Source: Eledone cirrhosa | Lineage: Eukaryota | Assembly: GCA_964016885.1 (NCBI GenBank) | Contig: OZ024742.1 | Coordinates: 284,580,001 to 284,644,000 of the forward strand | Direction of reading: 5' to 3' | Length of the DNA stretch: 64,000 nucleotides | Shown: positions 28,426-62,959 of the stretch, piece by piece | How positions within the stretch are numbered: position 1 is the stretch's first letter | How the letters are laid out: each line of letters starts with the position of its first letter | Made by a program: the position numbers and the translations under genes | Notes under the pieces: generated by a model | Told to the model about the DNA's origin: nothing | The model's database searches: none | The model's input: the letters and a program-made list of their open reading frames with translations, nothing else

Positions 28426-28565
28426 TTTTCTTATATAAATAAAAGTATTTACACGCACAAAACCCACATCGTACCGTCCTGTACCGTCCTGTGCCGTCTG
28501 TAATGTTTTTCTTGATGTCAGCCCTTGTGGCCAATAAAGAAATCATTATTATTATTATTATTATT
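28425..28565 (+). mobile_element. Tx1 3' UTR terminal fragment (~120 bp + ATT tail), inverted relative to the adjacent copy
   Basis: Reverse complement of 26530-26645 with a few substitutions and one extra 10-mer repeat; ends AATAAAGAAATC(ATT)n. Confidence 0.9.
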
Positions 28566-28779
28566 GAATGCCATGGTTGACGGAGGCTCGGCTCTGTAAG
28601 GTATAGTAATTTTTAACCGTTAAAACAATTGTAAATTGTTTAAAACTTGAACCAAATTGTTGATAAAGACACCCTCCTCCTCGTGAGAGGGGTCTTTCTG
28701 TCCGTTATTTGGCCCTTCGGGGTTAAATAACCAGTTATTGGGGTTTTGTACCCAATATTCATTTTAAACAAAAAACAAC

Positions 28780-30883
28780 ATGGCTACGAAAAAGAAATTT
28801 CATACGTCACTCCCACTCATTCCGTCTTCTTCTTCCTCAATCATCACTACAGCAGAGAGAAGATTGTCTCTCTCCCTCCCTTCTTTAAATGTGTCTCTCT
28901 CCCTCCCTTCTCTTTCGCAAGTGACGAAAGAAAAGAAAAGTCTCGTGCAAAGCGTGCAAGGTTTCTCCACGACGACGACGACAGCGACGAAACAGGTGTG
29001 CGGGAAATACGAAAACCCAGTTCATTCGTCTGACGTCAGGAATAATAGCAGTAGCAGCCGTAATAACAACAGCAACAGTGACAATGAAAACAACAGTAGC
29101 AGCCGCAACAGCATCACCAGCAGCATAAACAACAACAGCATTAGCAGCAGCAACACCAACAACAACCACAGCAACAGCGGCGGAGGCAGTAGTCGTAGTA
29201 CCTGCAGCAACAACAAAAGTACCAGCAGCTCTGACGACAACAACAACAGCAGAGAAAAACCAATCTCATTTGCAGGTATTGCGAAAAACTTGGAAACAAT
29301 CCTCATAACAAATGAGGAATTAGAGGAAGCGAAGAAGATGGTGACAAAGAACGGACACCGAGCAATCTGCAAGGCAGCGGAAAAATTTTTCGAAACCCAA
29401 GAGCACTGTACGGTCACGTACCGTACAGTAAGTACAAAATCCCGTAGGGTGGAAAGAGCCACAGAGGCCCAAATACAAAAAGCCTTGGGGTCTGTGTGGC
29501 AGCGGAAAACGCACATCACCCGAGGCAAAAAATATGCCACCGTAGACGTACTTTTTGCCACACCCCAGGAGGCAAAGGCCCAATCAGTAGTGACCCTAAG
29601 GAGCGAGGAAATGGTGTTGGTGCCCTCCTACTGCGGGCAAAAAATTGTGAGGGTCAAACTGACCCACGCCCCCCCCCCCCCCCCGGAATGACCCCTTCTT
29701 GGCTGGGCGCGTCTGTCCTCGTCGGAATCGAGGACAAAACAACTGTACTGCAAGTACAGAAAAAAGTAAGAGAAGATTGGGTCGGCTCCTCCATTGAGAT
29801 GCTAATCCAAACCAACCAGGAGTGCATCGAAGCTATCCCGGATGTGATAGACTTCGATAACGGCACTCAACTGCCCATAAGTGTTGAGGGCAAACGCCCG
29901 AAATGCTTTCGCTGTGGATCGAAGACTCACCTCAGGGCCTTCTGCAACGAGAAGACCCTGAGAAAGGAGAAACCCCCCTCCTTCCGAATCCGGCTCCACG
30001 GCTACCAGCAACAGGACAAGCGGCAACCAGGAACGATAGGTCCGTGACACCCATACCCACTCCACGGAAATCAAAAACAGCAGCAGCAGTGGAAATATTA
30101 ACAACAACAACAGTAATACCAAATGCAGCTGCAACAGAGACTCCAGTGCAAACATCACCAACAACAACAAGTGAAAGAGTGGAGCTGGTACCCCTCCCCG
30201 ACCTCACAGAATCAGACATGGAGTGTGAGGTGGGAGAGGGATGGCAAAAGGTCGCAAGAAGGCACAAACGCAGAAGCAGCGCATCGTCGCCTTTGAAAAG
30301 GGAGGAAAGAAATGAGAAAAGGGTAAAGTCTACTGCAAAGAGACCCACAGCAGCAACACCACCAACACCATTACCACCCACACCAGCACCACCATCACCA
30401 CCGGCGACAACCCCACCGCCAACAACACCTTCAACACCACCACCACAAGCACCAACATCGCAAACACAACAACAAAACACACACACCCAGCAACAACGAC
30501 AAGAAAATAGCAGAACCACACCCCACCCCCAGAAAAACAAATGCACGGCAATAAACACACACAACAAGAAACTAATGACTTACATAATTGAACACACAGA
30601 CATTTCACAACAGGACTACATAATACCAGCACCAATCAAAACGCCAACTAACATAAGACTGCTAAAAATAGCACAGAAACAATACACAAATATTAAAACG
30701 AAATTCCCCAACGCAGTTGGTGATTTCAGGGACCTAGGAGGAACCATCAATCGAAGAGTATACTCAGACATTCTCTTAGAAGAGCCGACGACCAGCCGAA
30801 GGGACGATTCAACGGTCCCTTCACCAGACGATCAAGTGAAAAGGGATGTAAAAACCATCCCTCCTCTACCAAAAGTACGGTAA
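28780..30883 (+). pseudogene. Tx1 ORF1 (gag-like, CCHC zinc knuckle) with two frameshifts in C-runs
   Basis: Three overlapping ORF-track frames (28780-29691, 29496-30047, 29903-30883) join at the C16 run 29669-29684 and the C-run near 29973. Contains the knuckle CFRCGSKTHLRAFC, an Asn/Ser-rich N-terminus and a Pro/Thr-rich C-terminus. Confidence 0.85.
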
Positions 30884-30918
30884 GTGGTCTTTCCCATCTT
30901 TTCCACTCTATTTTATAC

Positions 30919-33900
30919 ATGACCTCACTCAGAATAGGCAGCATAAATGCGCGTGGCTTGGGGTCGTCATGGAAGCAGGGTCACCTGCTCAACGACCTCA
31001 GGTCACTAAACATAGATGTAGTGGCCATCAGCGAGACCAGAATCTCCGAAGCACGGGCCTTCGCACCGATCTTCGGCGGCTACGATGTGTACGCATCTCC
31101 CAGCCGTCCTGGATCGGGTGGAGGAGTTGCTGTGCTTTTTCGGAGAGGTTTGGATCTCGCCATACGGGCCGTCTTCCTGGACCCAGAGGGTAAGCTGGTG
31201 GTGCTGGACGTGACCAGCGGAGACGGGCAAGCTTTCAGGCTAGTGGCCGTCTATGCCCCGACAGGAGCAGGGCGGCCTGATTTCTTCCGGCGTCTGGAGA
31301 CCTTTCTTGGAACCTCCCGCTCTTTAGTGTTAGTGGGCGACTGGAAAGGGATCTTAGATGCACGCTGGGACTGTGTGGGATTAGCGGATAGGGGTGGAGG
31401 TGCAAGAGCCTCACCAACCTGCTCAGGCGTTTTGAACTGTCTGACAGGTACCGATTGGATTTCCCGAATGTGCCAATGTGGACTTGGACAAACCGCATAG
31501 GGTCATCCAGATCATATCTAGATAGAGTATTTTGTAGGGAAATAGATAGGTCTAGCATAGGCTGTCCACAATTCAAGATAGTCAGCTACACGGACCACAA
31601 ATTCGTGACCTGTGTGCTTGACTTAGATAGGCTTCATAGACGAGGACCCGGCTACTGGAAGCTAAACGCGTCCTTACCAGCGCGCAAGGCCTACAGAGAC
31701 CGGATTAGCGAACTAATTAAGCGGGCGTTGACGGGGGCCATCGTCGACAACAAGTGGTGGTTTGCTCTGAAAAGAGCGATTAGAATAGAATCGATTAGGT
31801 TTAGTAAGGCTTTAGCAATAGAGAAAAATAGAGCAGAGGGAGAACTAGTTAGAAAATTAGACGAGGCGCTTAGCAAAGGCATTGCGACCGACGTGCTTGC
31901 GGCGAAATTGGCCCTTGACCAATTCTTCAATGCAAAGCACGAAGGCTGCGTTGTCAGAGCTAGGGAGCGTGCTCTCAGACACGAGGGGACGAAAGCCGTT
32001 CAATGGGCCCGAGTGGCGGAGGCGCGTCGTGGCAACAAAGCCACGATCCGGTCTTTGGTGGACCACGACGGGCGCATGCTACTCGATCCCGGGCAAATGT
32101 GTGAAGCTTTTCAGCGACACTTCGCTCAGCTGTTCGGGGGCAGCGGTGGGCCGGGTCGAGGGATGGACTTTAGTGTCTACCTCGACGGACTGCCGCGGCT
32201 CTCGGCCACTGAGGCGAAGTGTTGCGAAAAGCCGATAACAGCCGCTGAAGTAAGGGAGGCAATGACTGGCTGCACAAGGGGTAAATCGCCTGGTTTGGAT
32301 GGTCTGCCCTATGAACTTTACGTACAGATGCCAGACTTGTTCGGAGGCCTCTTGGCGGACGTCTACTGCAACTGGCAACAGAACGGGAGAATTCCCAGTT
32401 CTGTGAGCCGAGGAGCGGTGGCACTGCTGAGAAAGGATCCGAACAAGGGGGATAACATAGACAATTTCCGGCCCATAACTCTGCTAAACACAGAGTTCAA
32501 GATTTTGGCCAAGGTGCTAGCAAAGAGGTTGGCGCTTGTCGTTAGTGGTCTGGTGGGAGAGGCGCAGACATGCGCCATTCCCGACAGATCCATCCACGAC
32601 AACCTCCACCTCATGCGATACATCATAGAGAGGGTAGCTAAGGAACCTGGCACGGGTGGGTCCTTGATCAATTTAGATCAGTCGAAAGCTTTCGATAGGG
32701 TCGACCATCGTTACCTAGCGGCAGTCCTGAGGGTGGCTGGCTTTGGGCCCGTCTTCAGAGGCTGGATCGCTGCCATGCACAGCGACATCTGCTCTGTGGT
32801 GAGAGTGAACGGTCACCTGTCGGAACCGTTCAACATCATGCGCTCGGTTCGCCAAGGATGTCCCCTCTCGTCCCTCTTGTACGTATTGACTCTCGAGCCA
32901 TTACTGCACAAACTGGAGACGTTGAGGGGAGTCCCGCGCGAACTAGGATGCGGAAGATCCGTGTCAGCATATGCGGACGATGTCACCGTAGTGGTGTCGA
33001 ACGCCAAACACATCGAGGCGATCGGCACTACACTAAGAGAATACGAAGCGGTGACAGGAGCAATGATCAACCAGGAAAAGTCAGTGGGCCTGCAGCTCGG
33101 CACCTGGAGAGGCAGGTCCATGCCGTCCAACAGCGTCGTCGGGCGCTGGACGGACGGACCGGTTAAATTGCTAGGGGTCTGGTTCGGTCCGGACCTCCAG
33201 ACGGACAAAAACTGGGACGAGGTGACGAGCAGGGTGGCTTCTCTCACCCAGAAATGGGCGGAGAGGAAGCTATCCCTGAAAGGTCGAGCGGAGGTGGCTA
33301 ACGCGTACATCGCGTCTGTCATCTGCTACCGCCTAACCGTCGTACCTTGTCCTAAGCCTCGCCTGACTGCGCTGGAGCGTTTGCTCTTTCGCTTTTTGTG
33401 GAAGGGACGTGCTCCGATGGTCAGGCGGTCCATCTGTTGTCAACACCCGCTACGTGGAGGGCTGGGCATGCCGTGGCTGATGATGCGCAGGCACGCGCTC
33501 AGGCTACGACATCTCCACCTCTTCCTCGACGGTGATCAGGTGTGGTCGCCGTTTGCTAGACGCGTTTTTCCCCAGCTCGTTTCCTTGGCGGAGCTGCAGT
33601 CCTGGGTCAAGCGAAGACCGAGAGGGAGCGCCTGGAGACTGGAATGTCTTCAGGCGCTCACAGCCCTCGACCAATCGGGCAATGTGATCGGTGGAAACTC
33701 CACCTCGGCGTTCTATAGAGGATTAGTGGAGGGGAAGAGCGACGACGTACTTGGGGAAACTCTAGGCGTCGACGAAAATCAACTAGCCAATCTCTTCGGA
33801 AGAACTTTCGGGCCGGGGCCTATGGACAACTTCCAGAAATCTCTGGCCTGGCAGTGCTACCGAGGAGCCTTGCCAGTTCGGGATAAACTCTACAGGCATG

Positions 33901-34337
33901 GAGGTGCCGTCAGCCGGGCATGTCCGAGATGCGCGCAGGGCGACGAAACCGTCCTGCACGCACTCGTCCAGTGTCCGAAAATTGCTGACTTGTGGGTTTA
34001 TGTCGAACACCTGCAGTCGCGTTTAGGAGGGATCCGGCTATCATCTGAGTCCATCGTGAGGATTGCCCCGCCCTCCTCCTTTAGCCGGGAAGGGCAGGCA
34101 GTTTTTATCTGCCTGGTGGCCATGGTGAAAGAGATAGTATGGTGGACACGTTTGAAAGGGCTGAAGACGAGCACTTACCTCTTCGGTGATGCTCTGATTG
34201 ACTTTTTCAAATTTCATTTGAGAAGGAAAATCAGAGTAGAGAGGGAAGTGCTCTCTTCCCAGCATTTTGTTGAAAGATGGGTGAGAGAAGCAAGAATGGC
34301 CCGAGTGAATGGGCCTACTCTGAGTATATATCTGTAA
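30919..34337 (+). CDS. Tx1 ORF2: APE endonuclease + reverse transcriptase + C-terminal zinc finger, with one frameshift near 31395
   Basis: EN motifs SINARGL, ISET, VGDW, SYLDRV, YTDH. RT motifs KSPGLDGLP, NFRPITLLN, LDQSKAFDRV, RQGCPLS, YADD. C-terminal CPRC..ETVLHALVQC. Frames 30919-31500 and 31455-34337 join in the G-rich patch 31391-31400. Confidence 0.93.
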
Positions 34338-34582
34338 ATTAAAGGTGGAAAACTGGGAGAGGGCACTTGCCTTGGTGGTCAGGGTCATTGTGGCTTTTTA
34401 CTGGGCTTTCTCCACAAATGTCCCTCCGAAGTCTGCCCCCTATTGGGGAATTTTTCATTGTTATTTTTTGTTACATCCTGTTTTTGTTTTTTACACGCAG
34501 AAATGCCATTTGTACCGTCCTGCATTGTCCTGCACTGTCCTTAATGTCTACTTTATGTAAACCCTTGTGGTTAATAAAGAAA

Positions 34583-34629
<47 letters not shown>

Positions 34630-35496: not shown

Positions 35497-38390
35497 GTTC
35501 TTCTGGTTTTATAATTTCACAAATTTTTACCAATAGAGAGAGAGTCGGTTTCTAACATAGACACAAGACTCTCTCATTGGAATTTACACATCAACTAGGT
35601 AGATTATGTATGCATGTCTGCATGTGTAGATATGGATGTTATTGTATTTGTGGATGTGTATGTTTTGAGTTGTATGTGTGCATGTGTATATGCAGTTATT
35701 AGATGCAAAATTTTTGGAATGTTTTACATATTTTTACTATTCCATTAATGGATTGTACTTGTAATTTCCCAACTAGTTGTGTTCTTTCTGTTCCTGTGAA
35801 GCCTAGCTTCTCAAGATTTGTACTGAGGCAGTTACTAACATATCCCAGCGCCCCAATAATCTGAAAGTGTAATCAGGGTGGAGTATCTGCAGATTTCTCA
35901 TCAGTTCTGCATAAATATTCTCCTTTTCGCTAATCTTTGATATTATATTGGCATCTGCTGGGCAGCTAATTTCCACTACTGTGCATGCTTTCTTCTCCCT
36001 GTCCCATATCATAATATCTGGTCTGTTATGCCTGCATTTTATTGGGGTTTTTAATGGAACATACCACCAGTACTCTTTCCTATTATGTACATGGATATCT
36101 TCCCCATTGCTGTAGCTTTTAATGTGTTTATTATCGGGGCTATCTTTTTTACGAACTGCATTGTACAGTGTTTTGCCCACTACATCATGCCTCATAGGTA
36201 GATAGTACCGCGATGACATCTTTGGACAGCTGCTGATGACATGGGTGATATCCTCGATGATAGTTCTTCAGAGCCTGCACTTGTTATCACATCTAGGTGT
36301 TTTGCCTGCATCTCTATCTCTTTTGTGAATCAGGTATTTCGTGTTAATCTCCTGTTCTTGGATTACAAAAGCGTATCCTTCAAAGTGGGAGCCAATATAG
36401 CGGTTGTTGGTCCAAGATAGACTACTTTCCTTATCTATATTACTCTCACTCTGGAGCGTCCTGGCAACATATCCATGCATGATTTTTTGCTGATAAGCAT
36501 GAAACTTTTCATCCATGGATTCACTGCGATACTGCTGAGCGACATCCCTGGGTGTGAGTTTTTTGATTATCACACAGAGAATATCTCTCGAGGAGTTCCT
36601 TCCCAACTCTGATGATCTTATCTGTTTCATGCAGATAAACTTGCTCAAGAAACAGGCTCCTACGCTTCGAGGTTCGTAGATGTTGTCGGAGAGATATGAT
36701 GCAACATTCAAATGTTGTCTGGACTGATGTAAGGCCTCTGCCTCCCTGCTTACGTTTCAAGTAAAAGCGGTCTATGTCACTGTTGATGTGGAAGTTTCCG
36801 GTGTTGTTTAGTATTTTTCGAGTTCCAACATCAACTGCTCGGATTTCGTCTATCGTCCAATTGAGTATTCCAAACGTTGGTGTTAGGACAGGCACAGCAA
36901 ACACATTGTGAGCCACTGTTTTGTTTTGCGCAGAGAGTTCCGATGACCAGATCTTTCTTAATCGGGTGTAGTATTCCCTGGTTACGCGTTCTTTATTACA
37001 GATACCATTATAGGATGTTCTCATCTATCCCAAGGTATCTTTAGCAGTCCTCATCAGATATCGGTGAAACAGTTACGCCATTGATGACAATGTTCCTAGA
37101 TTGGGTTGTTGTTTTTCCCGCTTTACAATCATGTATGAGCATTTATCTTGGCCAAACTCCATTCCTATATCCTTTGAGAACGTTGTAACCAGGTGAAGAT
37201 TGTTCTTCATCCCATCCATGTTCTTGGCATAGCGTTTCAGATCGTCCACAAAGAAATTATGGGTTAGGTTCGTATTTCTGTCCTCCTGTGAGCCAATGAT
37301 GTATCCCTCATATTTCTTGAGCAGAAAGGACAAGGGGTTTAATGACAAGATGAATAATATCACAGAGAGACTGTCCTCCTGAAATATACCCCTGCAATAT
37401 TTTATTTTATCAGTGAAAATAGAGTCCTCCCACTCTATCTTTAACCTTAGGATAGTAGCCCAAGAAGAAGACAGCCTCTCTATGGCTCTGACAATAATGT
37501 CTGGGACTTTAGCAAGTTGGAGGGCCTCTATCATCCAAGAGTGGGGAACAGAATCGAAAGCTTTCCTGTAGTCCAGCCAGACTGTATTCATATTCCTCCT
37601 AAGTTGTCGCACCTCCGACATCGCAGTTTTGTTGATTAGGAGTTGTTCAGCACATCCCCAAACCCCTTTCTTTCCAGCTGCTTGTTCATCTGTGATGATG
37701 TTATTATTTTCACAGTGATCTTGGAGGAATAGGTTCAGGCAGGCTGTATACATCTTATACATCAGGTTCTGGCATGTAATGGGTCGGTAGTTTTTTGCCA
37801 AGTGGGTGTCTTTGTTCTTGGGGACCAGTAATGTTTGTGCTAATGTCAACCATTCTGGTATAAGTGTATCTCCCTTAAGAACTTGTTGGTAGAGGTCAGT
37901 AAGATACCTCCGATAGAATATCAGTTTTTTGTACCAGTAGCCGACAATCATGTCTCTTCCTGGTGTTTTCTTATCTTGGAGTTTTCCTATCACAGTCTCA
38001 AGGGTACCCTCACTTATTTCGTATGTTTTTGTTGTAGTGTAGGAGTAATAGTTCTTTCGGATTTCTTTTAGCCACACTGCATCTTGGTTGAAATTCTTCT
38101 TTTCACTCCATATTTTTCTCCAAAAGGAATCTGTCTTTCTGGGATGGGGCCTCAGTGACACTTATTATTTTGTTCTTCATATCTCTATAGACTGATGTTT
38201 GGTTTCCTCTGAATCTTTTATTAAGCACTTTTCTCTCATCTACCATCTTCAGGTATCGGCGTTTTTCGCTAACAGTTCTCAATTCTTGTTTGAGGGTGAT
38301 CAGCTTATATTGAAGAGTTCTGGTTCTACTGTTACCAAACAGCGTCTCTATTTTATTTATCACTCTTTGTTGGTGAGGAGTGAGGTTTTT
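35497..38390 (-). mobile_element. 5'-truncated R4/Dong-like RLE non-LTR retrotransposon (family 1) in (CATA)n
   Basis: RT in 37073-38161 (KTPGRD, NYRPITC, WLDYRKAFDSV, GIFQEDSLS, FVDD). C-terminal CRL..ITHVISSC, RHD and NRPDIMIWD..VEISC form a restriction-like endonuclease. Frameshifted; (TATG)n lies on both sides on the + strand. Confidence 0.9.
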
Positions 38391-38567
38391 TGTATGTATG
38401 TATGTATGTATGTATGTATGTATGTATGTATGTATGTATGTATGTATGTATGTATGTATGTATGCGTGTATGTGTGTATGTATGTATGTATGTATGCATG
38501 TATGTATGCATGTATGTGTATGTATGTACGTGTGTATGTATGTTTGTATGTTTGTGTGTTTGTATGT

Positions 38568-38831
38568 ATGTAAAACATTCCAAAAATTCTGCATTTAATA
38601 ACTGCATATACACTTATACAGATACAAAGCATATGCACATGCACACATACAACTCAAAATATACACATCCACATAATAACATCCATACCTGCACAGGCAT
38701 GCATGCATGCTTATATGCATACATATCTACGTAGTTGAAGTGTAAATTCCAATGAGAGAGTCTTGTATCTAAGTTAGAAACCGACTCTATCTCTATTGGC
38801 AAAATTTGTGAAATTATAAAACTAGAAGAAC
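38568..38831 (+). mobile_element. R4/Dong-like family 1, 3'-end fragment
   Basis: CKTFQKFCI* plus a 3' UTR matching the reverse complement of 35497-35730; followed by degenerate (CATA)n. Confidence 0.85.
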
Positions 38832-42979: not shown

Positions 42980-43249
42980 TATAAAATAAAAAATATTAGA
43001 TGTAATATGCGCAATTAGTAGTGGCCCTCAGACAACACATATGAGACCCATGTGGCCCTCGGGGGACCCTCAGTTTGACATGCCTGCTTTACGGTATTCG
43101 TCCCACCTCATTGCACGTTCTGAGTTCAAATCCCGCTGTGATCAACTTTGCCTTTCATCCTTTCGAGGTCTATAAAAATAGTACCAGTACAGTACTGAAG
43201 TCGATTCTTCCTCTATGGAAAAAATCAGCTGTGTTCAGACCTGGAGAGG

Positions 43250-44965
43250 TCACAATCACCCTCACCGTCACGATCACCATCACCACCATCACACCACAAC
43301 ACCACTACACTACCACCACACGACTACAACTACACCATCACACCACTAATCCACTACTCCACTACACCACTACCACTACGCCACTACACCAGCACCACAC
43401 TACCACCATCATCAAGCAACCACAATCATCACTCCGGACGCTACACCCCCGAGCATCCATCACACCAAGCACACCATCGCACCACCACATCACCACACCA
43501 CCACCACCACGACTACCATACCACCACCACGCCACCACCACCCCACAACACCATCACAAAACCACACCACGACACCACCATCACACCACCACAACACCAC
43601 ACTCCCACCACACCACCACACCACATTTCCACTACCATCACACCGTCACACCACACCACCACCATCACAACACCACCACACCAACACACCACAACACCAC
43701 ACTCCCACCACCACACCACTACACCATCACAACACCACACAACCATACCACCACACAACCACACCACCACACCACCACAACACCACAACACCACCACACC
43801 ACTACACCACCACACCACTACACCACCACACCACTACACCACCACACTCCCACACCACCACACCACCACACAACCACACCACCACCACACAATCACAGCA
43901 CCACGCCACCACACCACCACACCACCACACAACCACACCACTACAACACCACAACACCACACCGCCACACCACCACACCACCACATCACCACACAACAAC
44001 ACCACCACACAATCACACCACCACACCACCACACCACCACACCACCACCACACAACCACACCACCACACAATCACACCACCACACCACCACCACACCACC
44101 ACACCACCACACCACCACACCACCACCACACCACCACACCATCACACCACCACACAACCACACCACCACACCACCACACCACCACACCACCACACCACCA
44201 CCACACCACCACACCACCACACCACCACACCAACACACCACCACACCACCACACCACCACACAATCACACCACCACACCACCACCACACCACCACACCAC
44301 CACACCACCACACCACCACCACACCACCACACCATCACACCACCACACAACCACACCACCATACCACCACACCACCACACCACCACACCACCACACCACC
44401 ACCACACCACCACACCACCACACCAACACACCACCACACCACCACACCACCACCACACCACCACACCACCACACCACCACACAACCCCACCAACACCCCA
44501 CCACACCATCACACCACCACACAACCACACCACCACACCACCACACCACCACACCACCACACCACCACCACACCACCACACCACCACCACACCGCACCAT
44601 CACACCACCACCACAACACCACCACAGCAACACCACTCCACCACCACCACCACACCACCACACCACCACACCACCACACAACCACACCACCACACCACCA
44701 CACCACCACACAACCACACCACCACACCACCACACAACCACACCACCACACAACCACACCACCACACAACCACACCAACACCCCACCACACCATCACACC
44801 ACCACACCACCACACCACCACACAACCACACCACCACACAACCACACCAACACCCCACCACACCATCACCCCACCACACCATCACACCACCACACAACCA
44901 CACCACCACACCACCACACCACCACACCACCACATAACCACACCACCACAGCAACACCACGCCAC
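43250..44965. repeat. CAC/ACC-rich low-complexity satellite
   Basis: Iterated CACACCAC-type units on the + strand. Confidence 0.9.
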
Positions 44966-45618
44966 CATTTTTCATCTCTGCTGAGTGTCTTTCACGTATT
45001 TGTAAGACCAATGTTATCTTTATGGCGATTTATGATCGCATCTGGAGCTTCTCACTCGGCTGTCGCGGGCGTCTGTGTATGTATGTGTATATGTGTATAT
45101 CTGTGTATGTGTGTATGTGTGTATGTGTGTATGTGTGTATGTGTGTGTGTGTGTATATCTATGTATGTGTGTGTGTGTATATCTATGCATGTGTGTGCGT
45201 ATATCTATGTATGTGTGTATGTGTATATCTATGTAAGTGTGTGTGTGTATCTGTGTATGTATGTGTGTATATCTGTGTATGTGTGTTTGTATGTATGTGT
45301 ATTTGTGTATGTATATCTATGTATGTGTGTATGTGTATATCTATGTATGTGTGTGTGTATCTGTATATGTATGTGTGTATATCTGTGTATGTGTGTGTGT
45401 GTGTATGTGCATGTATGTGTATGTGTGTGTATGTGCATGTATGTGTATATGCTTGATGTGTATGTAGCAGGATGGTTGTTTGTGTGTATGTGTATGTGTA
45501 TGTGTATATGTATGTGTATGTGAGTGTTTGTGTATATGCTTGATGTGTATGTGAGTATATATTTACGTGTATATAGAAGGATGGTTGTTTGTATATGTGT
45601 GTGCATGTCTGTGTATGT

Positions 45619-48232: not shown

Positions 48233-50179
48233 TACAAGACAATCTAGCAACATTGTCATTAATGGTCTAACTGTTTCACTGATATCTGACGAAGACTACT
48301 ACAGATACCTGGGGATAGATGAGAACATATCCTACAATGGTATCTGTAACAAGGAACGTGTAACCGGGAATATTACACCCGGTTAAGAAAAATATGGTCA
48401 TCCGAACTCTCTGCGTACAATAAAACAATGACTCCCAATGTGTTTGCTGTGCCTGTCCTAACACCAACGTTTGGAATAGTCGATTCGACGATAGACGAAA
48501 TCCGAGTTATTGATGTTAAAAGCCCCCAAATCCTAAATAACACCATCTTCCACATCAACAATGGCATAGGCCACCTCAACTTGAAACGTAAACAGGCAGG
48601 CGGAGGCCTAACATCAGTCCAGACGGCATTTGAGTGTCGCATCATATCCCTCCGACAACATCTACGAACCACCAAGCGCATGACCCCATCTATTGTGCAA
48701 GTCTGTCTACATACTCATGAGAGTTGGGAAGGAACTCCTTGAAAAATACTCCCTGCATGATAATCAGAAACACACCCACACCCAGGGAAATTGCCCAACA
48801 ATACCGCAGTGAATCCATGGATGAAAAACTACATGCTTATCAACAAAAAAATCATACATGGATATGTTGCCAGGAGGCTCCAGAGTGAAAGTAATATGGA
48901 TAAGCAAAGTAGTCTATCTTGGACCAACAACCGCTATATTGGCACCCACTTTAAAGATATGCTTTTGCAACCTAAGCACATAAAATAACAACGAAATACC
49001 TTATGCCCAAAAGAGATAGGGATACAGTCAAAACACCTAGATGTGACAACAAATGCAGACTGCGGAATTAACATCGAAGATTTCACCCATGATGTCATCA
49101 CGGTACTATCTATCTATGAGGCATGATGTAGTGGCCAAAACACTGTACAATGCAATCCGTAGAAAAGATAACTCCGACAATAAGCATATTAAAAGTTACA
49201 ACAATGTGGAAGACATATACATACATAATATGAAAGAGTACTGGTGGAATGTTCCAGTCAAAACTCCAATAAAATGCAAATATAACAGACCAGATATAAT
49301 GATATGGGACAGGGAAAATAAGGCATGCACAGTAGTGGAAGTCGGCTGCCCAACAGATGCCAATATAATATCAAAGATTAGCGAAAAGGAGAATATGTAT
49401 GCAGAACTAATGAGGAATCTACAGATACTCCACCCTGAATACCTGTGATTATTGGGGCACTGGGATATGTTAGTAACTGCCTCAGTACAAAACTTGAGAA
49501 GCTGGGCTTCTCAAAACTAGAAAGAATTTTAGTTAGGAATAGTTAGGAATTTACAAGTACAAATATGTAAAACATTCCAAATATTCTGCATGAAATAACT
49601 GCATATACACATGTACAGATACAAAACATATACACGTGTACACATAACACAAGCATACAGGTCCACATATACAATAACATCTATACCTGCACACACACGC
49701 GCATGTAGGCTTGCATACATATTTACCTAGGTGATATTGTCTAAATTCCAATTAAAGTGTCTTGTGTCTATGTTAGAAACCAGCTCTTACTCTAATGGTA
49801 AAAATATATAAAATAATTGTTTCTATTTTAGGCACAAGGCCAGCAATTACCCAGTACATTACTGGTACTTTATTTTATCGACCCCGTAAGGATGAAAGGC
49901 AAAGTTAACCTCGGTGGCTTAACTTTGCCTTTCATCCTTACGGGGTCGATAAAATAAAGTACCAGTAATGTACTGGGTAATTGCTGGCCTTGTGCCTAAA
50001 ATAGAAACAATTATTTTATATATTTTTACCATTAGAATAAGAGCTGGTTTCTAACATAGACACAAGACACTTTAATTGGAATTTAGACAATATCACCTAG
50101 GTAAATATGTATGCAAGCCTACATGCGCGTGTGTGTGCAGGTATAGATGTTATTGTATATAAAATAATTAAACCAGAAC
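48233..50179 (+). mobile_element. 5'-truncated, decayed R4/Dong-like family 1 copy; its 3' UTR is interrupted by a SINE fold-back insertion
   Basis: YRYLGIDE, FAVPVLTPTFG, RHD and NRPDIMIWD motifs. The terminal AAACCAGAAC + (CATA)n resumes at 50170 after the palindrome. Confidence 0.85.
49667..50160. repeat. Palindrome, 242-bp arms, 10-nt spacer
   Basis: 49667-49908 versus 49919-50160, one mismatch seen. Confidence 0.95.
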
Positions 50180-54045: not shown

Positions 54046-54718
54046 TTTGTTAATGATATGTTGGTGAGAGGCGAGGTGCGAGGGGCGGGAGAGAGAGAGA
54101 AAGAGAAGCGAGGCAACCTGGAATTCTTGGTGAAGGCCACACATGTTGAAAACATCCCTAACCTCCTCAACATTAATAACATCAGTAACATCAGTAAGTT
54201 CGTTGGTTGGTTTAGAAGAGGGAAGAAGGAATGTGTTGTTGTTGTTGTTGTTGATGTTGTTGATGTTTGCTATATACTAAATCTCAAGCCTAGCAGAGAT
54301 GAGGAGGGGAGGGATGATGGTGGATTACGGGAGCTGTGGGGGGTGGGGAACAGGAGAGACCAAAAGATGGAGTGATTAGTGAATATATATATATTGGGAG
54401 AGAGAGAAGAGAGAAAGAGAGATAGAGAAGAAAGAGATTGATAAAGAGATGGTTAAATAGATAGATAGATAGATAGATATGTTTCTTTATTAGCCACAGG
54501 GGCACAAAAGAAGGGGACAAATACAAAGCGGGAAGTTTACATACAATAAAAACGTGTAAAATATTATCACAAATGCAATTTAAAAATTAGTCGATTTTCC
54601 CCAATAGGGGAGACAGTTCATAGGGTAACAACACATACCCCCGAAAAAATGTGCAACCCTCATCTCCAGGAGTACGGAGAGTTTGTACTCCTTTCCTCTC
54701 CTCCTCCTTTTCCTCAAC

Positions 54719-57700
54719 CTACAGGCTGATATAGAGAGAAGGCCCATTCACTCGGGCCATTCTCGCCACTTTCACCCACCTTTCATAAAACTTGCTGGGG
54801 TACAGCACCTCTCTCTCCATCCTGATTCTTCTTCCAAAGTGGTATTTGAGTGAAAAAAAGAATCAGTTGTTGGCCGGAGAGAAAGGTGTCTGACCTCAGC
54901 CCTTTCAACCTTGTCCACCATACAACCTCTTTCGCCATAGCTATCACACAAAGGAAAACCGCCTCTCCTTCGTTTTTGAAGGAGGGTGGCGGTTTGATCA
55001 TGACAATGGACTCGATGGTCAACCGGATTGGTCCCACCCGCGACAATAGTCGTTCTACATAGCGCCACAGGTCGGGCAGTGTATGAATGCGTGCGCGACG
55101 GTTTCTTCGTCTCGCACGCACCTCGGACAGATCTTTTTTGCAGGGTCCCTGCCCGGGCGCCCATGTCTGTAGAGCTTGTCTCGAACTGGTAGAGGTCCTC
55201 GGTAGCGCTGCCAGGCTAGGGACTTTTGGAAGTTGTCCATCGGTCCCGGGCGGAAGGTCCTACCGAACAGACTGGCCAGTTCATCTTCCTCTACGCCTAG
55301 AGTTTCACCGAGCGCGTTGTCGCACTTGCTGCGGATCATCCCTCTGTAGAATGACGTAGTGGAGTCTCCACTGATCGCCGGGTCCGCCTGCCAGAGGGCT
55401 GTGAGCGCCTGAGCACATTCGATGTGCCAGTCGCCCATTTTCCTCGGTCTTTGCTTGACCCAGGACTGCAGCTCGGTCAGCGAGATGAGTCGTGGGAAGG
55501 CTCGCCTCACGAACGGGGCCCACACCGGTTGTCCGCTGAGGAATACGTAGATATGCCGCAGCCTGAGCACGTGTTTGCGCATTTTCAGCCACGGCATCCC
55601 CCAGCCCTCCGTTGGAAGGGTGTTGGCAGCAGATGGATCTTCTCACCAAAGGAGCCCGCCTCTTCCAAAGGAATTGGAAGAGCGCGCGCTCCATTTTGGT
55701 GAGCGTTTTGGCTGAGCAAGGCACGACGGTCAAGCGGTAGTAGATGGCGGACGCTATAAAAGTGTTCGCCACCTCCGGCCGACCTTTCAAGGATAGTTTT
55801 CACTCTGCCCACTTCTGGGTGAGTGCAAACACCTTGGCCGTCACCTCGTTCCAGTTCTTCTCCACCTGGAGGTCCGGACCAAACCAGACCCCGAGCAGCT
55901 TTACCGGTCCTTCCGTCCAGCATCCGACGACGCCATCGGAAGGAATCGGTTTTCCTCTCCACGATCCGAGTTGCAAACCGATGGACTTGTCCCAGTTCAG
56001 CTTCGCTCCTGTGAAACTTTCGTATTCCTTCAGTAAGGTGCCGACTTCCTCAATTTGCGAGGCGCTCGACACCATTACTGTCACGTCGTCGGCGTAGGCC
56101 GACGCCGCTTTCCGCAGTCCCGGTTCCAGAGGGATGCCCTGCAATAGCTCCAACTTCCGCAGTAGTGGCTCGCGCGTCAGTACGTACAGAAGGGAGGAGA
56201 GAGGGCATCCCTGTCGAATGGATCGCGTGATATGGAACGACTCCGAGAGGTAGCCGTTCACCTTGACCCTTGAGCAGATGTTGCTGTTGTGCATTGCAGC
56301 AATCCAGCCCCTGGACACGGGTCTGAAGCCTGCCGCCTCGAGCACCACATCCAGGTAACGATGGTCAACCCTATCGAAAGCCTTAGACTGATCCAAGTTG
56401 ATCAGGGCCCTACCGAAGCCAGGTTTACACCCTACCCTCTCTATGATGTATCGCACGAGGTGGAGGTTGTCCTGTATGGACCTGGTCGGGATTGCGCATG
56501 TCTGCGCTTCTCCCACCAGGTTCTCGACGACAAGCGCCAGCCTCTTTGCCAACACCTTGGCCAAAATCTGTAACTCTGTGTTTAGCAGAGTTATGGGCCG
56601 GAAGTTGCCTATGTCATCCCCCTTATTCTCGTCCTTCCTGACTAGTGTGACTACGCCCCCGGTCACAGAACTGGGAATATTCCCGTTCTGTTGCCAGTTG
56701 CAGTAGACCGCTTCCAGGAGACCGGAGAATAAGTTCGGCATTGCTACGTAAAATTCGTAGGGTAGACCGTCGAGACCTGGAGATTTGCGTTTGCCGCATT
56801 GGCTCAGTGCGTCCCCTATCTCAGCGTCTGAAATCGGCTTTTCGCAGAACTTTGTCTCGCTGTCCGAGAGTCGCGGTAGGCCGTCGAGGTATGGACCGAA
56901 ATCCATAGACCCTCCCGGCGCGCCGCCCTGCCCGAACAGTTGAGCAAAGTGCCGCTGAAAGGCCGCACACATCTGCTTCGGCTCACGTATCACGCGTCCG
57001 TTTTGGTCCTTCAAAGACCGAATCGTGGACTTGTTGCCACTTTTTGCCTCCGTCACTCGGGCCCAGCTAACAGCTTTGGCTCCCTCGTTATCCAGAGCAC
57101 GTATTTTGCTTCTGACAACGCAGCCCTCGTGCTTTGCGTCAAAGAACTGGTCCAAGGCCGTTCTCGTTGCTAGCACACTAGCTACGTTGCCACTTCTAAT
57201 TGCCTCTTCTACTTTATCTACCAGTTCCTTCTCGGTTCTATTTCTATCTAACGCTAATTCTTTACTAAAAACTAACGAGTCTAATCTAACTGCCCTCTTG
57301 AGAGAGTACCACCATCTGTTGTTGACAATAGCCCCTATCAAGTGCTGTTTAACTAAAGTGCTAATCCATCTACTGTAGGCTTTGCATGTCGTTAACGACA
57401 AGTTCAGCTTCCAGTAGCCGGGTCCTTGTCTATGGGTTCTATCAAGGTTGGCCATGCAGGTCACTAGTTTGTGATCTGAATAGGCAACCATGAACATTTG
57501 TGGACAGCTTAACATGTCCCTATCCTTATTTCTAACTAGAACCCTATCTAGGTACGATCTAGATGTTCCGCTACGATTACTCCACGTCCACAGTGGCGCA
57601 GTCGGAAAATCTAGTCGATATCTATCGGTCGATTGACTGTTTGAGGCTGTTACACCCCCCTTTATCGGAACATGCTCCCACATAGTCCCAACGTGCATCT

Positions 57701-58136
57701 AGGATTCCATCCCAGTCCCCCACTAAAAGCAAGGAGCGGGACGTTCCCAGAAAAGTCTCTAGACGTTTGAAGAAGTCTGGCCGCGGTGTCCCGGATGGGG
57801 CATATGCAGCCACCAGCCTGAAGCTCCACCTTCACTACCGTCAACGTCTAGGACCACCAGTCGACCCTCCGGGTCCAGATGTACCGTCTGTGTTACGAGG
57901 CCCAGGTGTTTTCGCAGCAAAACGGCAACCCCGCCCCCATACCCCGGCCGACAGAGAGATGCGTAGATCTCAAAATCATCGAAGATGGGGGCTAGCTGTC
58001 GCTCGCTGTGGATCCTGGACTCGCAAATGGCTACTACATCCATACTGTGCGACCTGAGGTCGTCTAAGAGTTTGCCCTGTTTCTAGGGCATCCCCAGGCC
58101 GCGTACGTTCACACATCCAACTCTTATATTGGCCAG
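54719..58136 (-). pseudogene. Tx1 lineage B ORF2 (EN-RT-zinc finger) with several frameshifts
   Basis: Pieces 57759-58043, 57622-57813, 55800-57698, 55305-55790, 55055-55597 and 54783-55121 tile the EN (ICES, VGDW, SYLDRV, YSDH), RT (YADD) and CPRC regions. The expected start position reads CTG. Confidence 0.9.
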
Positions 58137-58978
58137 GTTGGTGCTGAAAAGTTAAAAGAGGAAAATAAATCACTCACCCTTCGTTTCCTGGGGACCAGGC
58201 TGCACGATTTCCATGGGGGTGTTGGAGGGGTTGTCTGGATGGGTGGTGGTTTCCGGCGGGTGGGGACGGAGATGTTTGGTGGGGTGGGGTCTGGTGGGAT
58301 GGGGGTGTCTGGGGAGGGGAGACATTTGAGAAGGACGCGGTTAAATGGTTTCACGCAGGAATTCCCCACATCCTTTTCAAATGTTTCTTTTAGGGACCTA
58401 TAAGGGACCCTAATCAGTTTTAGGTTCAGTTTTTTGTTATTTTTAATAGAGTGGGCGAAAGTTTTGCCAACATCTGTTCAAGGGTCAAGGTGAACGGCTA
58501 CCTCTCGGAGCCGTTCCATATTACGCGATCCATTCGACAGGGATGCCCTCTCTCCTCCCTTCTGTACGTACTGACTCTCGAGCCACTACTGCGGAAGCGT
58601 AGTGGCTCGTTCGTGATGGTCTCCATTAGTGTTTTGTTTTCAGTGTTTATGTAAGTGTAAGTGTAATTTTCTTGTGTTGTGTTTGATTTTGTCTGTAGTT
58701 CTTGTGTGTGCTTTCGTTTTGTTGTAGATATTTTGTTTTCAGGAGGTGGGGGTTTTGTTTGTGATATTTTTGTTGTTTGTGTTGGTGGTTGTATGTTTGT
58801 GGTAGTGTTTGCTGGTTTTTTGCTTTTGTGATGTCTTTTCTTTCTTTTCGAGCGATGGGGTTCTCCCTCGTCTTCACTGGGTGATGGAGAGATAGCCTCA
58901 TCTGTTGTATCGTCTGTGTGATTGGGGAGGGGTATGTCTTGGGGAGCTGTTGTGTCTGTATGTGATTTTGCAGTGGTT

Positions 58979-60184
58979 TTAGGTGGAGTGGGGTTGGGTG
59001 GGACTGTGTTTGTTGTGGTTATTTTTGTGTGTTGGTGTTGTTGTTGCTGTGGTGGTGTTGGTGGTTGTGTTGTTTTGATGGGTGTCGGCAGAAGAGCCTT
59101 TTTTTTGGTTCATTAGTTTAGGACAGGAAGCCCTCAGGTGACCCCTGCTAAAGCAATGGTAACATGAAGGCCGCCTACCCTCAACCGAAAGGTTTATGTA
59201 GGTGAGTCCGTCCAGGAGTACACGCTGTGGGATCATAGCTATTCGCTCTGGGCTCATTTGCACCAGAACTTCAATGCTAGTCCCATTGAATACATCTCTG
59301 GGGGACTTTCCTACTGACAGTATTCTGTCTTCATCAAAATTGATGAAGCCGCACAGTATCCACCATATGTTCACCTTTGGTGTGACACTTGTGATTCTGA
59401 TCTTTTGTGTCCTTTTTCCCATGTATGTAGGGAAAAAGGTGTACAGGTTGGATACAATTGGCGACACAGAGTAATTTTGGGCCGTCAATTGATCCTTCAT
59501 GAGTACCGAAATACTCCCAAAAAGTTTGCTTCTTTGAATGAATGCAATATCATTCATTGAATTTTTGAAAACCAGTTCAATTGCTTTCTGTGACAATTGG
59601 ACTGGTTTTCGGGTAGAATTGGAAACTGTCCTAAAAACTATCGTTTTGAGAGCAGTTTCCTTGCGAATTTCTACCGGAGAATTGATGCTGAAAGCACCAT
59701 TTTTATCGAAAGTGACATATCTCTTAGCGTCCTTTAAAAGTTGTTCAGCATTTGTTATGTTGAGATATATCAATTCTTTCTTTTGAACTTTCTCTGCAAA
59801 GGAGATTTTTGGTTTCTTTGTGGAATCCGTATTGGTGGTGTTGTCATTATTGTTGTTATTCTTGTTGTTATTCTTGTTGTCACCGATGTTGGTATCATCC
59901 GTATTTTCCTTGGTGTTGTTGTTGTCTTTGATGCTGGTGTTGTCTTTATTTTTTTCTTTGTTGTTGTTATCATTGTTGCTTTTATCATCATTATTGGTTT
60001 TGCTGTTATTTTTGTTGTCATTGAACTGTTTGGTGTCATTTGTGTTGTTTGGATATGAATTCGTTTTTTTATTTTCATTTTGTCTTTCCATCTCTATAGT
60101 ATCTAGTGAAGAAGACGTTGTTGACTGCGAGCTTTGTAGTCTTACCGCCTCTCCACCACCATTATCGTTGGACGCAGCGTTCAT
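58979..60184 (-). CDS. Tx1 lineage B ORF1, N-terminal 401 aa (continues frameshifted toward ~58150)
   Basis: Asn/Asp/Lys-rich N-terminus and the knuckle CYHCFSRGHLRASC. Blocks ISFA, FRTVS, FPTYMG and SVEGRRP align with lineage A ORF1. Confidence 0.85.
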   Translation of the reverse strand: MNAASNDNGGGEAVRLQSSQSTTSSSLDTIEMERQNENKKTNSYPNNTNDTKQFNDNKNNSKTNNDDKSNNDNNNKEKNKDNTSIKDNNNTKENTDDTNIGDNKNNNKNNNNNDNTTNTDSTKKPKISFAEKVQKKELIYLNITNAEQLLKDAKRYVTFDKNGAFSINSPVEIRKETALKTIVFRTVSNSTRKPVQLSQKAIELVFKNSMNDIAFIQRSKLFGSISVLMKDQLTAQNYSVSPIVSNLYTFFPTYMGKRTQKIRITSVTPKVNIWWILCGFINFDEDRILSVGKSPRDVFNGTSIEVLVQMSPERIAMIPQRVLLDGLTYINLSVEGRRPSCYHCFSRGHLRASCPKLMNQKKGSSADTHQNNTTTNTTTATTTPTHKNNHNKHSPTQPHST

Positions 60185-60402
60185 AACGTAATCAAAATTT
60201 TACAATATTTTTTTCCAAGATTCGATGGAGAAAAATTTTTTAAATGGATATTCCGCCCCTGTAGGGGCGAAAATGAGTTGACCCACCACCTGAAGGTCCA
60301 GACGGGTGGTCAAGTTACACAATGATATAAAATTTAACTAAAAACTCACGTTTTTTTCTTACATAAATTAACGGAAACTTCTCCGCGAAGTGACACACGT
60401 CT

Positions 60403-62959
60403 GATAGAGAGATAGATAGATTTCTTTATTAGCCACAAGGGCGCAACAAGAAAGGGGACAATACAAAGACATGCCGGGGATTTTACATACAGTCGTGTAA
60501 AAAATATAAAAACAAACAATTTCAACAATCGAAATCCCCAATAGCGGGGAGGCGCCACAAATGGGTTGTTTAATACCCCGTCGATAGAACAACCCTCAAC
60601 TCAAGGAGCGTGTTGTGCAAGTGCTCCTTTCTTCCTTTTGCTCTCTTCCTCAACCTACAGGCTTATAAACAGAGAAGGCCCAATCACTCGGGCCATTTTC
60701 GCTTCATTCACCCACCTTTCAGTAAATTTACTGGGGTGCAGTGCCTCTCTCTCCACCCTGATTCTCCTTCTAAAGTGATACTTAAAGAATGGAATCAATT
60801 GTTGTCCGGAGAGAAAGGCATCTGTCCTCAGTCCTCTCAACCTCGTCCACCATATAACTTCTTTCACCATAGCCACCGTACAGAGGAAAACCGCCTCTCT
60901 TTCGTTTTTGAAAGAGTCTGGCGGTTTGATCCTTACTATGGACTCGGCAGTCAACTGTATTTGTCCCATATGCGACAGCAGTTGTTCTGCATAGTTCCAC
61001 AGGTCGCTTACGCCCGGGCAGTGTACAATTGCGTGCAGAACTGTTTCAATGTCCTGCGCACATCTTGGACACGTCCTCTTGGAAGGATCCCTGCCAGGGC
61101 GTCCGTGCCTGTAGATCTTGTCACGAACCGGTAGAGCTCCTCGGTAGCACTGCCAGGCCAGGGACCTCTGGAAGTTGTCCATAGGTCCCGGGCGGAAAGT
61201 CCTACCAAACATACTGGTGAGCTCATCGTCTTCGACGCCCAGAGTCTCTCCGAGCACGTCGTCGCCCTTGTAACGTACAATCCCTCTATAGAATGTCGAA
61301 GTGGAGTCTCCACTGATTGCTGCGCCCGCTTGCCAGAGGACTGTGAGCGCCTGAGCGCATTCAATGTGCCAGGCGCCCATCGTTTTCGGTCTTTTCTTCA
61401 CCCAGGACTGCAGCTCCGTTAGCGAGACGAGCTGTGGGAAAGCCTGTCTCACAAACGGTGCCCACACCGGTTGGGGGTCGGTGAGGAATACCTGGAGATG
61501 CCGCAGCCTCAGCGCATGTTTGCGCATCATCAGCCACGGCATTCCCAGCCCTCCGTTGGAAGGGTGCTGACAGCAGACGGATCTCCTCACCAGCGGAGCC
61601 TGCTTCTTCCACAGAAACTGGAAGAGCATGCGTTCCATCTTGGCGAGGTGTTCACGGGGACAAGGCACGACAGTCAAGCGGTAGTAGATGACGGACGCTA
61701 TGAAAGTGTTCGCCACCTCCGCTCGACCTTTCAAGGACAGTTTGCACTCTGCCCACTTCTGAGTGAGTGCAAACACCTTGGCCGTGACCTCGTTCCAGTT
61801 TTTCTCCACCTGGAGGTCTGGACCGAACCAGACCCCGAGCAATTTCACCGGTCCGTCCGTCCAGCGTCCAACGACGCTGTCGGATGTCATCGGTTTGCCT
61901 CTCCACGTACCGAGTTGCAAACCGACAGACTTGTCTGGGTTTAGTTTTGCTCCCGTCAGCGTTTCGTATTCTTTCAGTATGTTGCCGATCACCCCGATTT
62001 CCGAGGTGCTCGACACCATTACTGTCACGTCGTCGGCATAAGCCGACGCCGCTTTGCGCAGTCCCGGTTCTAGGGGGATGCCCTGCAACAGCTCCAATTT
62101 CCGCAGTAGTGGCTCTAGAGTCAATATGTACAGAATGGAGGAGAGAGGGCATCCCTGTCGAATGGAACGCGTGATTGCGAACGGCTCCGATAGGTAGCCG
62201 TTCACCTTGACCCTCGAGCAGATGCTGGTGTGCATCGCCTCGATCCATCCTCTGAACACGGGACCGAAACCGGCCGCCTTGAGAACCGCTTCCAAGTATC
62301 GATGGTCGACCCTATCGAATGCCTTAGACTGATCCAAGTTGATCAGAGCCCCACCGAAGCCGGGTTTACTACCCACCCTCTCTATGATGTATCGCATGAG
62401 GTGGAGGTTGTCGTGTATGGACCTGGTCGGGATTGCACACGTTTGCGCTTTCCCTACCAGGTTCTCGACGACAAGCGCTAACCTCGTCGCTAGCACCTTG
62501 GCCAAAATCTTTAACTCTGTGTTGAGCAGAGTTATGGGCCTGAAGTTGTTAATTTCGTCCCCCTTGTTCTCGTCTTTCCTGATCAGCGTTACTACGCCCT
62601 TGCCTGCAGAACTGGGAATTCTCCCGTTCTGCTGCCAATTGCAGTAGACGGCTTCGAGGACGCCAGAGAACAAGTCCGGCATGCCTATGTAAAATTCGTA
62701 GGGTAGACCATCTAGACCGGGTGACTTGCGTTTCCCGCAGCGACCCAGAGCGTCCCGTATCTCAGTGTCCGTGATCGGTCTTTCGCAGAACTCGGCGTCC
62801 GTGTTCGAGAGACGCGGCAGGCCGTCGAGGTATGAACTAAAGTCCATTGCCCCGTTTGGCTCACCGTCGTTCTGCTCAAACAGTCGCGCAAAGTGCCGCT
62901 GAAAGGCCGCGCACATTTGCTTGGGGTCAAGTAGCACGCGTCCGTTTTGGTCTTTCAAA
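60403..62959 (-). mobile_element. 5'-truncated Tx1 lineage B copy with an uninterrupted 767-aa RT/zinc-finger frame (60655-62958)
   Basis: Complete RT motifs without stops. The 3' end is GCGCCCTTGTGGCTAATAAAGAAATC(TATC)n, and the 5' break abuts GATA repeats. Confidence 0.93.

Follow-up and report, generated by a model that had tools for sequence, protein, structure and literature searches.

Two related groups of LINE retrotransposons with different microsatellite targets in the octopod Eledone cirrhosa

Introduction

How do two related retrotransposons that share one genome come to insert into different microsatellites? This question is raised by a stretch of 64,000 nucleotides of the 3.0-Gb Eledone cirrhosa genome (NCBI GenBank assembly GCA_964016885.1, contig OZ024742.1, positions 284,580,001 to 284,644,000 of the forward strand; hereafter the window, numbered from its first base), which is occupied by long interspersed nuclear elements (LINEs) of two groups, one ending in (ATT)n (group A) and the other in (TATC)n (group B). 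The mechanism of microsatellite targeting by LINEs with an APE-type endonuclease (EN) is not well understood according to a review (PMC3812793). The original prediction, made from the window alone, held that two sister lineages with very similar second open reading frames (ORF2) had undergone a natural switch of target, driven either by a few EN residues or by pairing of the RNA tail with the target. The full-length A copy at 28566 and the ATT tails at 28545, 26526 and 1887 on which it drew are all present, the last two on the minus strand, and the shared terminal motif and both EN loop strings match the window as quoted.

Results

Tail type follows lineage across the genome

The end motif shared by the two groups had 22,969 exact matches in the genome and its reversed control had none, showing that the motif is not due to chance. 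We analyzed 9 kb around 60 of the first 61 ends among the matches listed, which together with the window gave 74 ends in 17 clusters by 3' untranslated region (UTR); the subfamily labels A0–A3 and B1–B6 were coined in the present analysis. In this sample, the motif continued as NN-ATT in 33 of 35 A-group ends and as TATC in none, while B-group ends continued as NN-TAT in 37 of 39 cases and as ATT in none. For three A singletons in the sample, the motif was the sole basis of assignment to the group.

A count across the genome gave at least 9,503 A-type and at least 9,119 B-type ends, and four cross-type searches covering two repeat phases were performed. The A-type motif was followed by NN-TATM at 69 ends; all 20 inspected ends were B elements by their 3' UTR with one motif base changed, and 49 were uninspected. 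The B-type motif was followed by NN-ATTA nowhere in the genome. The shifted-phase search recovered one A-type end (of at least 9,503) and one B-type end (of at least 9,119), both with the context of their own type. Tail type thus tracked lineage genome-wide, and the proposal of two related groups with distinct microsatellite targets was confirmed: the groups use different repeats almost without exception, with at most a handful of exceptions in the genome.

Many A ORF2 frames are intact. A 78-residue EN piece of group A had 24,086 candidate matches in the genome; the 150 that were scored were all 100% identical, and many of them lay in open frames of 1,195–1,204 codons with a spacing of ~6.05 kb. 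For group B, an intact ORF2 frame of 1,167 codons was recovered. Two unrelated types of 5' UTR and ORF1 occurred in A0 on ORF2 and 3' UTR sequences that were 96% identical (L034, L051, L070 and others), the A0a ORF1 being closer to that of A2, and B subfamilies differed at the 5' end and had swapped 3' UTRs among themselves (L057, L087). No A/B chimera was seen among the fetched copies. At G000:C1:211.9-213.0 Mb, B1 starts were clustered directly behind a two-unit tail at a spacing of 2.7 or 5.7 kb, which likely represents tandem amplification rather than separate insertions.

The repeat is the target and not only the tail

The 5' flank consisted of ATT repeats in 100 of 100 full-length A0a starts among the matches listed (2,618 matches) and in 0 of 100 listed B1 starts (374 matches). 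B1 starts carried imperfect leaders at a fixed distance: by-eye counts gave one variant in 33 of 100 listed starts and a TACC ending in 20, and the same odd 18-mer leader was seen by eye at two distant B1 loci. In full-length B1 copies, some of the 5' repeat is thus carried along by the element. Because a leader is found on full-length copies, we restricted the target count to 5'-truncated copies. These came from the first sample together with another 39 loci that had been selected because their tails were imperfect, and six copies at a locus edge were excluded. On their 5' side, truncated A copies had ATT in 12 cases, TATC in none and neither repeat in 17, and truncated B copies had TATC in 40, ATT in none and neither in 23 (Fisher p 5e-12, 52 informative copies). 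Insertion of both lineages into both repeats equally, the outcome that would have spoken against distinct targets, was not what these flanks showed, as none was crossed.

A duplication consistent with our rule was found for 21 of 91 truncated copies, about half of which were merely neighbouring tails. Clear target duplications of 8–20 bp were present at E013, L180, E024, E049, E052, E065, L156, L166, L172 and L176 (E and L numbers are our labels for individual copies), and all except that of L176 began two bases after GAAA. As the duplications begin where the element ends, most of the tail is a copy of target DNA. One extra repeat unit that was absent from the target was found at L176 and, by eye, at E055. 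No A-run followed AATAAAGAAA in 200 A and B ends among the matches listed. Some insertions had only 3–4 matching bases (E024, E055, L180), one had no repeat match (L172), and an old A copy (L189) had a TATC-like 5' flank. A candidate RNA-derived base at E067 (window 26531) was rejected, as the A2 3' UTR itself supplies this base.

Endonuclease change on the switch branch

The two groups have diverged further than originally described. The ORF2 DNA of the window A and B copies was 72.0% identical over 3,416 nt with a longest identical run of 32 nt, and ORF2 proteins of A and B subfamilies were 67–68% identical with longest identical runs of 19–29 amino acids, so that calling the ORF2s "very similar" was an overstatement. 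EN identities were 57–65% between groups and 69–93% within groups. Our comparison of 51 EN copies covered three ATT subfamilies (A0, A2, A3) and four TATC subfamilies (B1/3, B4, B5, B6). Mapping tail type onto the EN tree, as had been proposed, gave an exact split by tail for the 48 of 51 copies with a downstream end. Majority residues were disjoint between groups at 53 of 235 EN positions, and 17 were fixed (one of these an edge artefact). The ENs therefore differ more than slightly, and with 53 disjoint positions a few responsible residues cannot be singled out.

The EN loop aligned without gaps to the L1 hairpin, with the same length between the anchors T192 and S202 (anchors taken from PMC1950540), in agreement with its proposed equivalence to the L1 bB6-bB5 hairpin. 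The residue at the hairpin tip (L1 P197 position) was I in 26 of 27 ATT copies and S in 24 of 24 TATC copies, and it was held by group although EN divergence among the subfamilies of one group reaches 31%. A second cluster of EN differences was located at 152–159, where C/Y152 aligns to L1 R155. A single-sequence EN structure prediction had a confidence score (pLDDT) of 36 and was discarded.

A tree built on whole ORF2 from 14 copies together with 9 database proteins placed the TATC copies in a single clade (approximate likelihood ratio support, SH-aLRT, 100) with A3 as its sister (98); the nearest named ORF2 relative was an Argonauta hians protein (69%). The position of A3 suggests that ATT was ancestral and that TATC is nested inside ATT. 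An ATT clade was, however, not rejected (approximately unbiased test, AU, p = 0.40). The tree shows that the target changed once, and the predicted target switch is supported in this part. The branch between the groups accounted for 0.27 of internal tree length in EN, compared to 0.13 in the reverse transcriptase (RT) and 0.16 in all non-EN columns. The EN share exceeded all 100 random column draws (maximum 0.23) and was the highest among 235-residue windows (non-overlapping maximum 0.21). This concentration of change in EN on the switch branch is suggestive, and it derives from one switch.

Natural tail changes founded no new target

Were insertion guided by the tail, copies followed by another repeat would be expected to give rise to new targets. 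Fifty-one A ends continued with ATT followed by CTT or GTT runs, 39 of them CTT. On the 5' side of 37 CTT-tailed A copies examined, 28 had ATT, none had CTT, six had neither and three were without a boundary; no CTT run lay beyond the ATT in the 24 CTT-tailed copies with a full-length start. CTT-tailed copies were scattered over subfamilies, were not mutual sisters, and were often full-length and 94–99% intact. B ends followed by (TC)6 numbered 120, and of 30 TC-tailed copies examined, 19 had TATC on the 5' side (one with TC beside the junction) and 11 had neither repeat. ATC or ATG tails (15) belonged mostly to old copies. The same off-type repeat was present on both sides at L184 (ATC) and L220 (GTT). 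The window contained three CTT, 28 TC, eight ATT and four TATC arrays. Copies with altered tails (CTT, TC) founded no new target, by which the other predicted option, retargeting through the RNA tail alone, is weakly disfavoured.

The sequence (TC)n(TA)n is found in many B tails. Decay of TATC arrays through slippage by two bases would produce this pattern, and B elements may mark the sites where compound microsatellites are born.

A 3' hairpin shared with an abundant SINE

Both groups end in a 3' hairpin with the loop CYTGT, whose stem is AACC/GGTT in A0 and GCC/GGC in A2 and B. The same hairpin with a swapped stem (TGGC/GCCA or GGC/GCC) lies at the 3' end of a short interspersed nuclear element (SINE) of ~190 bp with at least 120,988 3' ends genome-wide; its copies in the window are at 1545-1885, 10119-10265, 11093-11277, 17914-18074, 25820-26298 and 49812-50015. 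Stem pairs one to three were kept in 334, 331 and 321 of 354 fetched ends and the fifth in 15, counts that are partly forced by the search patterns, the stem variants of A0, B and the SINE being the informative changes. Upon folding, four Tx1 ends formed the hairpin (z -0.5, -0.6, -2.5 and -3.2) and the single SINE end folded did not.

TATC tails were found in 0 of 100 SINE ends among the matches listed. Among the A-tail SINE ends fetched (76), a duplication of 9–20 bp was clear at 23, in every case starting ATTA, and a pyrimidine, a base that the RNA could not pair with, stood just before the duplication in 21 of the 23. A G-tail variant (5,265 ends) occurred about equally on both motif variants rather than in one subfamily; among 33 fetched ends, 13 were clear, with target G in seven, A in five and one unclear. 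Target G was thus present in 7 of 13 G-tail copies compared to 0 of 23 A-type copies. The ATTA signature and the hairpin make the SINE a likely passenger of an ATT-group element. ARAGORN found no tRNA in the SINE head. The SINE is possibly one of the octopus OK/OR SINEs. In two A0 copies (L260, L274), a SINE occupied an identical internal site and had an identical duplication; LINE and SINE were either copied together or segmentally duplicated.

Classification and relation to known systems

By domain content and gene order, the A and B elements are best described as retrotransposons of the L1/Tx1 type that lack long terminal repeats (LTRs). An intact ORF2 of 1,139 amino acids contained PF03372, PF00078 and PF13966 (an N-terminal APE endonuclease, an RT and a C-terminal zinc motif). 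A separate ORF1 with a gag-like knuckle lay upstream, with one CX2CX4HX4C knuckle in the ORF1 region of both window A and window B, and 5'-truncated copies and target-site duplications were present, without LTRs. The closest solved structure by sequence was human L1 ORF2 (E 2e-52 over residues 5–850, compared to 1e-20 for R2). The elements share the Tx1-clade trait of sequence-specific insertion into multicopy targets. ORF2 database searches returned no named Tx1 sequence, no family name emerged from the protein atlas or cluster look-ups, and the case for the Tx1 clade is circumstantial. Thirteen recently active L1-Tx1 families have been reported in O. vulgaris (PMC13282606).

Sister Tx1 families on different microsatellites have been published before. 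Kibi and Koshi of teleost fish are likewise APE-type LINEs with two ORFs, in which related families use (TC)n and (TTC)n, and crocodilian Tx1 families use (TTCC)n/(TTTC)n (PMC4494074; PMC3812793). Compared by description only, the elements studied here differ in their targets, (ATT)n and (TATC)n, and in their cephalopod host, which are the new aspects; they do not target (TC)n or (TTC)n, as TC- and CTT-tailed copies keep TATC or ATT 5' flanks. SART1, TRAS1 and R1Bm of silkworm are also repeat-specific APE LINEs, but they belong to the R1 clade and use telomeric or ribosomal DNA targets, and SART1 carries a poly(A) tail, which A and B do not. Human L1 has a hairpin loop of the same length, but combines a weak TTTT/AA preference with a poly(A) tail, whereas A and B show strict repeat choice, no poly(A) and a conserved 3' hairpin. 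In RTE LINEs and their partner SINEs, there is a correlation between the 3' repeat and the base at which the target duplication begins (PMC6007223); RTE elements, however, have one ORF and microhomology of 1–2 bases, and do not target repeats strictly.

Dong/R4 elements on (TAA)n use the same microsatellite on the opposite strand, with a single ORF and a C-terminal restriction-like endonuclease. We observed a 5-kb single-ORF R4/Dong-like element with such an endonuclease (L049, G000:C1:11275530-11280550) inserted antisense in the same ATT arrays, with ATT on both sides, and abutting many A tails. A single microsatellite is used here on opposite strands by two unrelated LINEs. Published work describes the activity of octopus L1-Tx1 and Dong-R4 elements without target analysis (PMC13282606, PMC8967140), and octopus SINEs, including OR2, are only cited (PMC4758252). 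We found no paper on the targets of cephalopod Tx1 elements, although Repbase, subscription journals and supplements may hold some. Also new here are the shared 3' hairpin and the 121,000-copy SINE with its ATT signature.

Organization of the window

The full-length ATT-group copy (subfamily A0a, 6.02 kb) occupies 28566..34584 on the plus strand and is 98% identical to other full-length copies; A0a-type 5' ends number at least 2,618 in the genome. It is preceded by (ATT)7 at 28545..28565 (plus strand), which is both the tail of an upstream short A2 copy and the target or leader of the A0a copy, and ends in an (ATT)15 tail at 34585..34629 (plus strand). Its ORF1 (28780..30883, plus strand) is broken by frame changes at a C16 run (29669-29684) and near 30047, and had no Pfam family above the cut-off; in the A0b ORF1 frame tested, the CX2CX4HX4C knuckle was not found. 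ORF2 (30919..34337, plus strand), with APE endonuclease, RT and zf-RVT, has one frameshift near 31400. The EN hairpin loop and catalytic D are at 31479..31529 (plus strand), with the tip I194 aligned to L1 P197, and the shared 3' end, comprising a 3–4 bp stem, the CYTGT loop and then AATAAAGAAA, is at 34560..34582 (plus strand).

The minus strand from 64000 to 54457 holds a head-to-tail row of four B copies, all of them ending in TATC and each inserted in the preceding copy's tail. They are the 3' part of a copy cut by the window edge (63282..64000), a 284-bp 5'-truncated B1 copy with TATC flanks on both sides (62976..63261), a 5'-truncated B4 copy with an open frame of 775 codons (60419..62961), and a full-length B1 copy of 5.92 kb (54480..60402). 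In the last, ORF1 starts from 60184 and ORF2 spans 58136-54722, both broken; the EN hairpin loop, with S at the tip, is at 57540..57590 and the (TATC)n tail at 54457..54479. An imperfect TATC run (60403..60420, also minus strand) is both the tail of the B4 copy and a leader that recurs at the 5' end of B1 copies. Neither full-length copy in the window is intact, as frameshifts or stops interrupt ORF1 and ORF2, but intact relatives exist elsewhere in the genome. Near the end of the ORF1 region of B, 130 bp of the element's own RT region lie reversed (58467-58596, 96% to 56154-56283). A GTAAG-like splice donor occurs 20–35 bases from the start in several unrelated 5' UTRs (window 28566-28600 and 60402-60360; L063, L076), suggesting a possible 5' UTR intron.

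At 26453-28565, two A2 copies stand head to head, a short one and a second one inserted antisense into it. The host (26453..28544, plus strand) has an (ATT)7 flank at 26453-26475 and its short A2 3' UTR copy is split into ~26476-26533 and 28430-28544; the inserted copy (26532..28425, minus strand, 1.9 kb, 5'-truncated) entered the 3' UTR of the short copy at an ATTATTT site. An old relative that has diverged to 64–69% identity with A and B is represented by its 3' part and ATT tail at 1887..2691 on the minus strand, with matching EN and RT fragments at 7513-9159. Fragments of another RT element are present at 35803-38594 (minus strand, with a 362-codon frame at 37073-38161), which by motif we take to be R4/Dong-like; BLAST against the L049 element gave no match. 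Long CA-rich and TG-rich degenerate tandem arrays at 43045-45800 yield open frames of 500–770 codons.

Discussion

A mechanism with two keys is the reading that we favour, with somewhat more confidence than doubt: EN would select and nick the site, and a short RNA repeat would pair to prime reverse transcription. ORF2 would bind the shared 3' hairpin, and the element RNA would extend slightly past the element end into the repeat. Once EN has nicked the repeat, a few matching repeat bases at the RNA end would pair with the nicked strand and start reverse transcription. Second-strand cleavage ~10-20 bp downstream would yield the duplication, and in full-length copies the 5' leader would anneal to the upstream repeat. 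As the tail of each new copy is its own target, tail and target would match automatically, and as the duplicated repeat is a target again, head-to-tail arrays would be built. A switch of target would then likely begin with a change of EN, the tail following. The observations on which this model is built are the target difference, the single change on the tree, the 8–20 bp duplications at the element end, the B1 leaders and the lack of poly(A) at 200 listed junctions. The EN key is supported by the split of the EN tree by tail, the tip residue, the branch share, the altered tails that founded no new target, the insertions with only 3–4 matching bases or none, and the SINE pyrimidine. The RNA key is supported by the extra unit at E055 and L176, by the 200 listed ends without an A-run, and by a hairpin-sharing SINE without TATC tails (0 of 100 listed). 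A precedent exists in SART1/TRAS1, where an EN swap changes the target, short RNA repeats anneal and improve priming, and tail replacement does not abolish insertion (PMC7265360).

Several points weigh against this model. A 100-residue ORF2 window at 751-850 had a branch share of 0.35, compared to 0.32 and 0.30 for the best EN windows, and of 29 strictly group-fixed ORF2 residues, 12 are in EN but 11 are C-terminal. With a single independent switch, every group-fixed residue correlates with the target. It may be that copies with altered tails never served as donors, and many of these tails probably originated after insertion, with 22 of 30 TC runs ending in TA/TATC. The match between G-tail and target G is predicted by RNA guidance, although a nick at that base with later mutation also fits. 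In L1-EN, loop grafts did not transfer specificity in a modular way and point mutants left nicking unchanged (PMC1950540). Four runs of RNA contigs revealed no transcript ends of the elements. On the primer side of the nick, whose exact position is not fixed by the present data, reading by EN and pairing of the RNA cannot be told apart from genome data.

Foremost among the alternatives, though unlikely, is that EN acts alone: the element would end at its last two bases, the whole tail would be duplication and pairing would be irrelevant. In its favour, almost every clear duplication begins exactly two bases past GAAA and the L172 junction lacks a repeat match, but the extra units at E055 and L176 are not in the target, poly(A) is absent despite AATAAA, and 5' leaders are inherited in B1, as seen in the common variant, the TACC endings and the odd 18-mer shared by two loci.

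We also doubt that choice is guided by RNA, with both ENs nicking a shared loose site and the RNA repeat selecting by pairing, so that a tail swap would retarget the element. Such guidance has been proposed for RTE elements and their SINEs (PMC6007223), and would suit the AT that adjoins a purine in the cut strand of both targets, hairpin loops that differ by one fixed residue, the near absence of cross-type junctions even in shifted phase, the repeat at both RNA ends, the SINE G variant (7 of 13) and the off-type repeats on both sides at L184 and L220. Against it, no CTT- or TC-targeting sub-lineage arose despite available arrays, although CTT-tailed copies are often full-length, largely intact and not mutual sisters; the EN change is concentrated on the switch branch, and the SINE G variant does not form one subfamily. 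It is similarly doubtful that EN is shared in effect and the RNA-end repeats are a built-in guide, in which case the target would be rewritable through tail and leader, with the hairpin as the protein handle that the SINE already uses. For comparison, retargeting of R2 needs a Cas9 fusion (PMC13580325).

Quite improbable is a specificity that lies mainly outside EN and is set where the primer duplex is held, in an RT thumb or C-terminal zinc region; the C-terminal fixed residues and the window at 751-850 would agree with it, but EN has the highest share among 235-residue windows and EN swaps retarget related elements (PMC7265360). That there is no targeting, each lineage making its own microsatellite tail and the 5' repeats being leaders or tails of neighbours, is very improbable, since despite the leader on full-length copies and the many tandem copies, leaderless truncated copies have the 5' repeat of their own type (12 A, 40 B, none crossed), including at sites without an upstream element and at unique-sequence duplications beginning ATTA or TAT.

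The difference in target between the two groups is real and strict, but they belong to a known kind of element and are not a new kind of system unless a tail swap works. They form a clean test pair with the same 3' hairpin, 67% identical ORF2s and differing targets; many young intact A ORF2s and intact B ones are available, the three ATT and four TATC subfamilies narrow the candidate EN residues to ~16, and the SINE is a likely passenger for assays in trans. Together these make the roles of EN and the RNA tail directly testable. With ~23,000 ends by one exact motif, the LINE family and the SINE are a large and likely recent force on octopod microsatellites.

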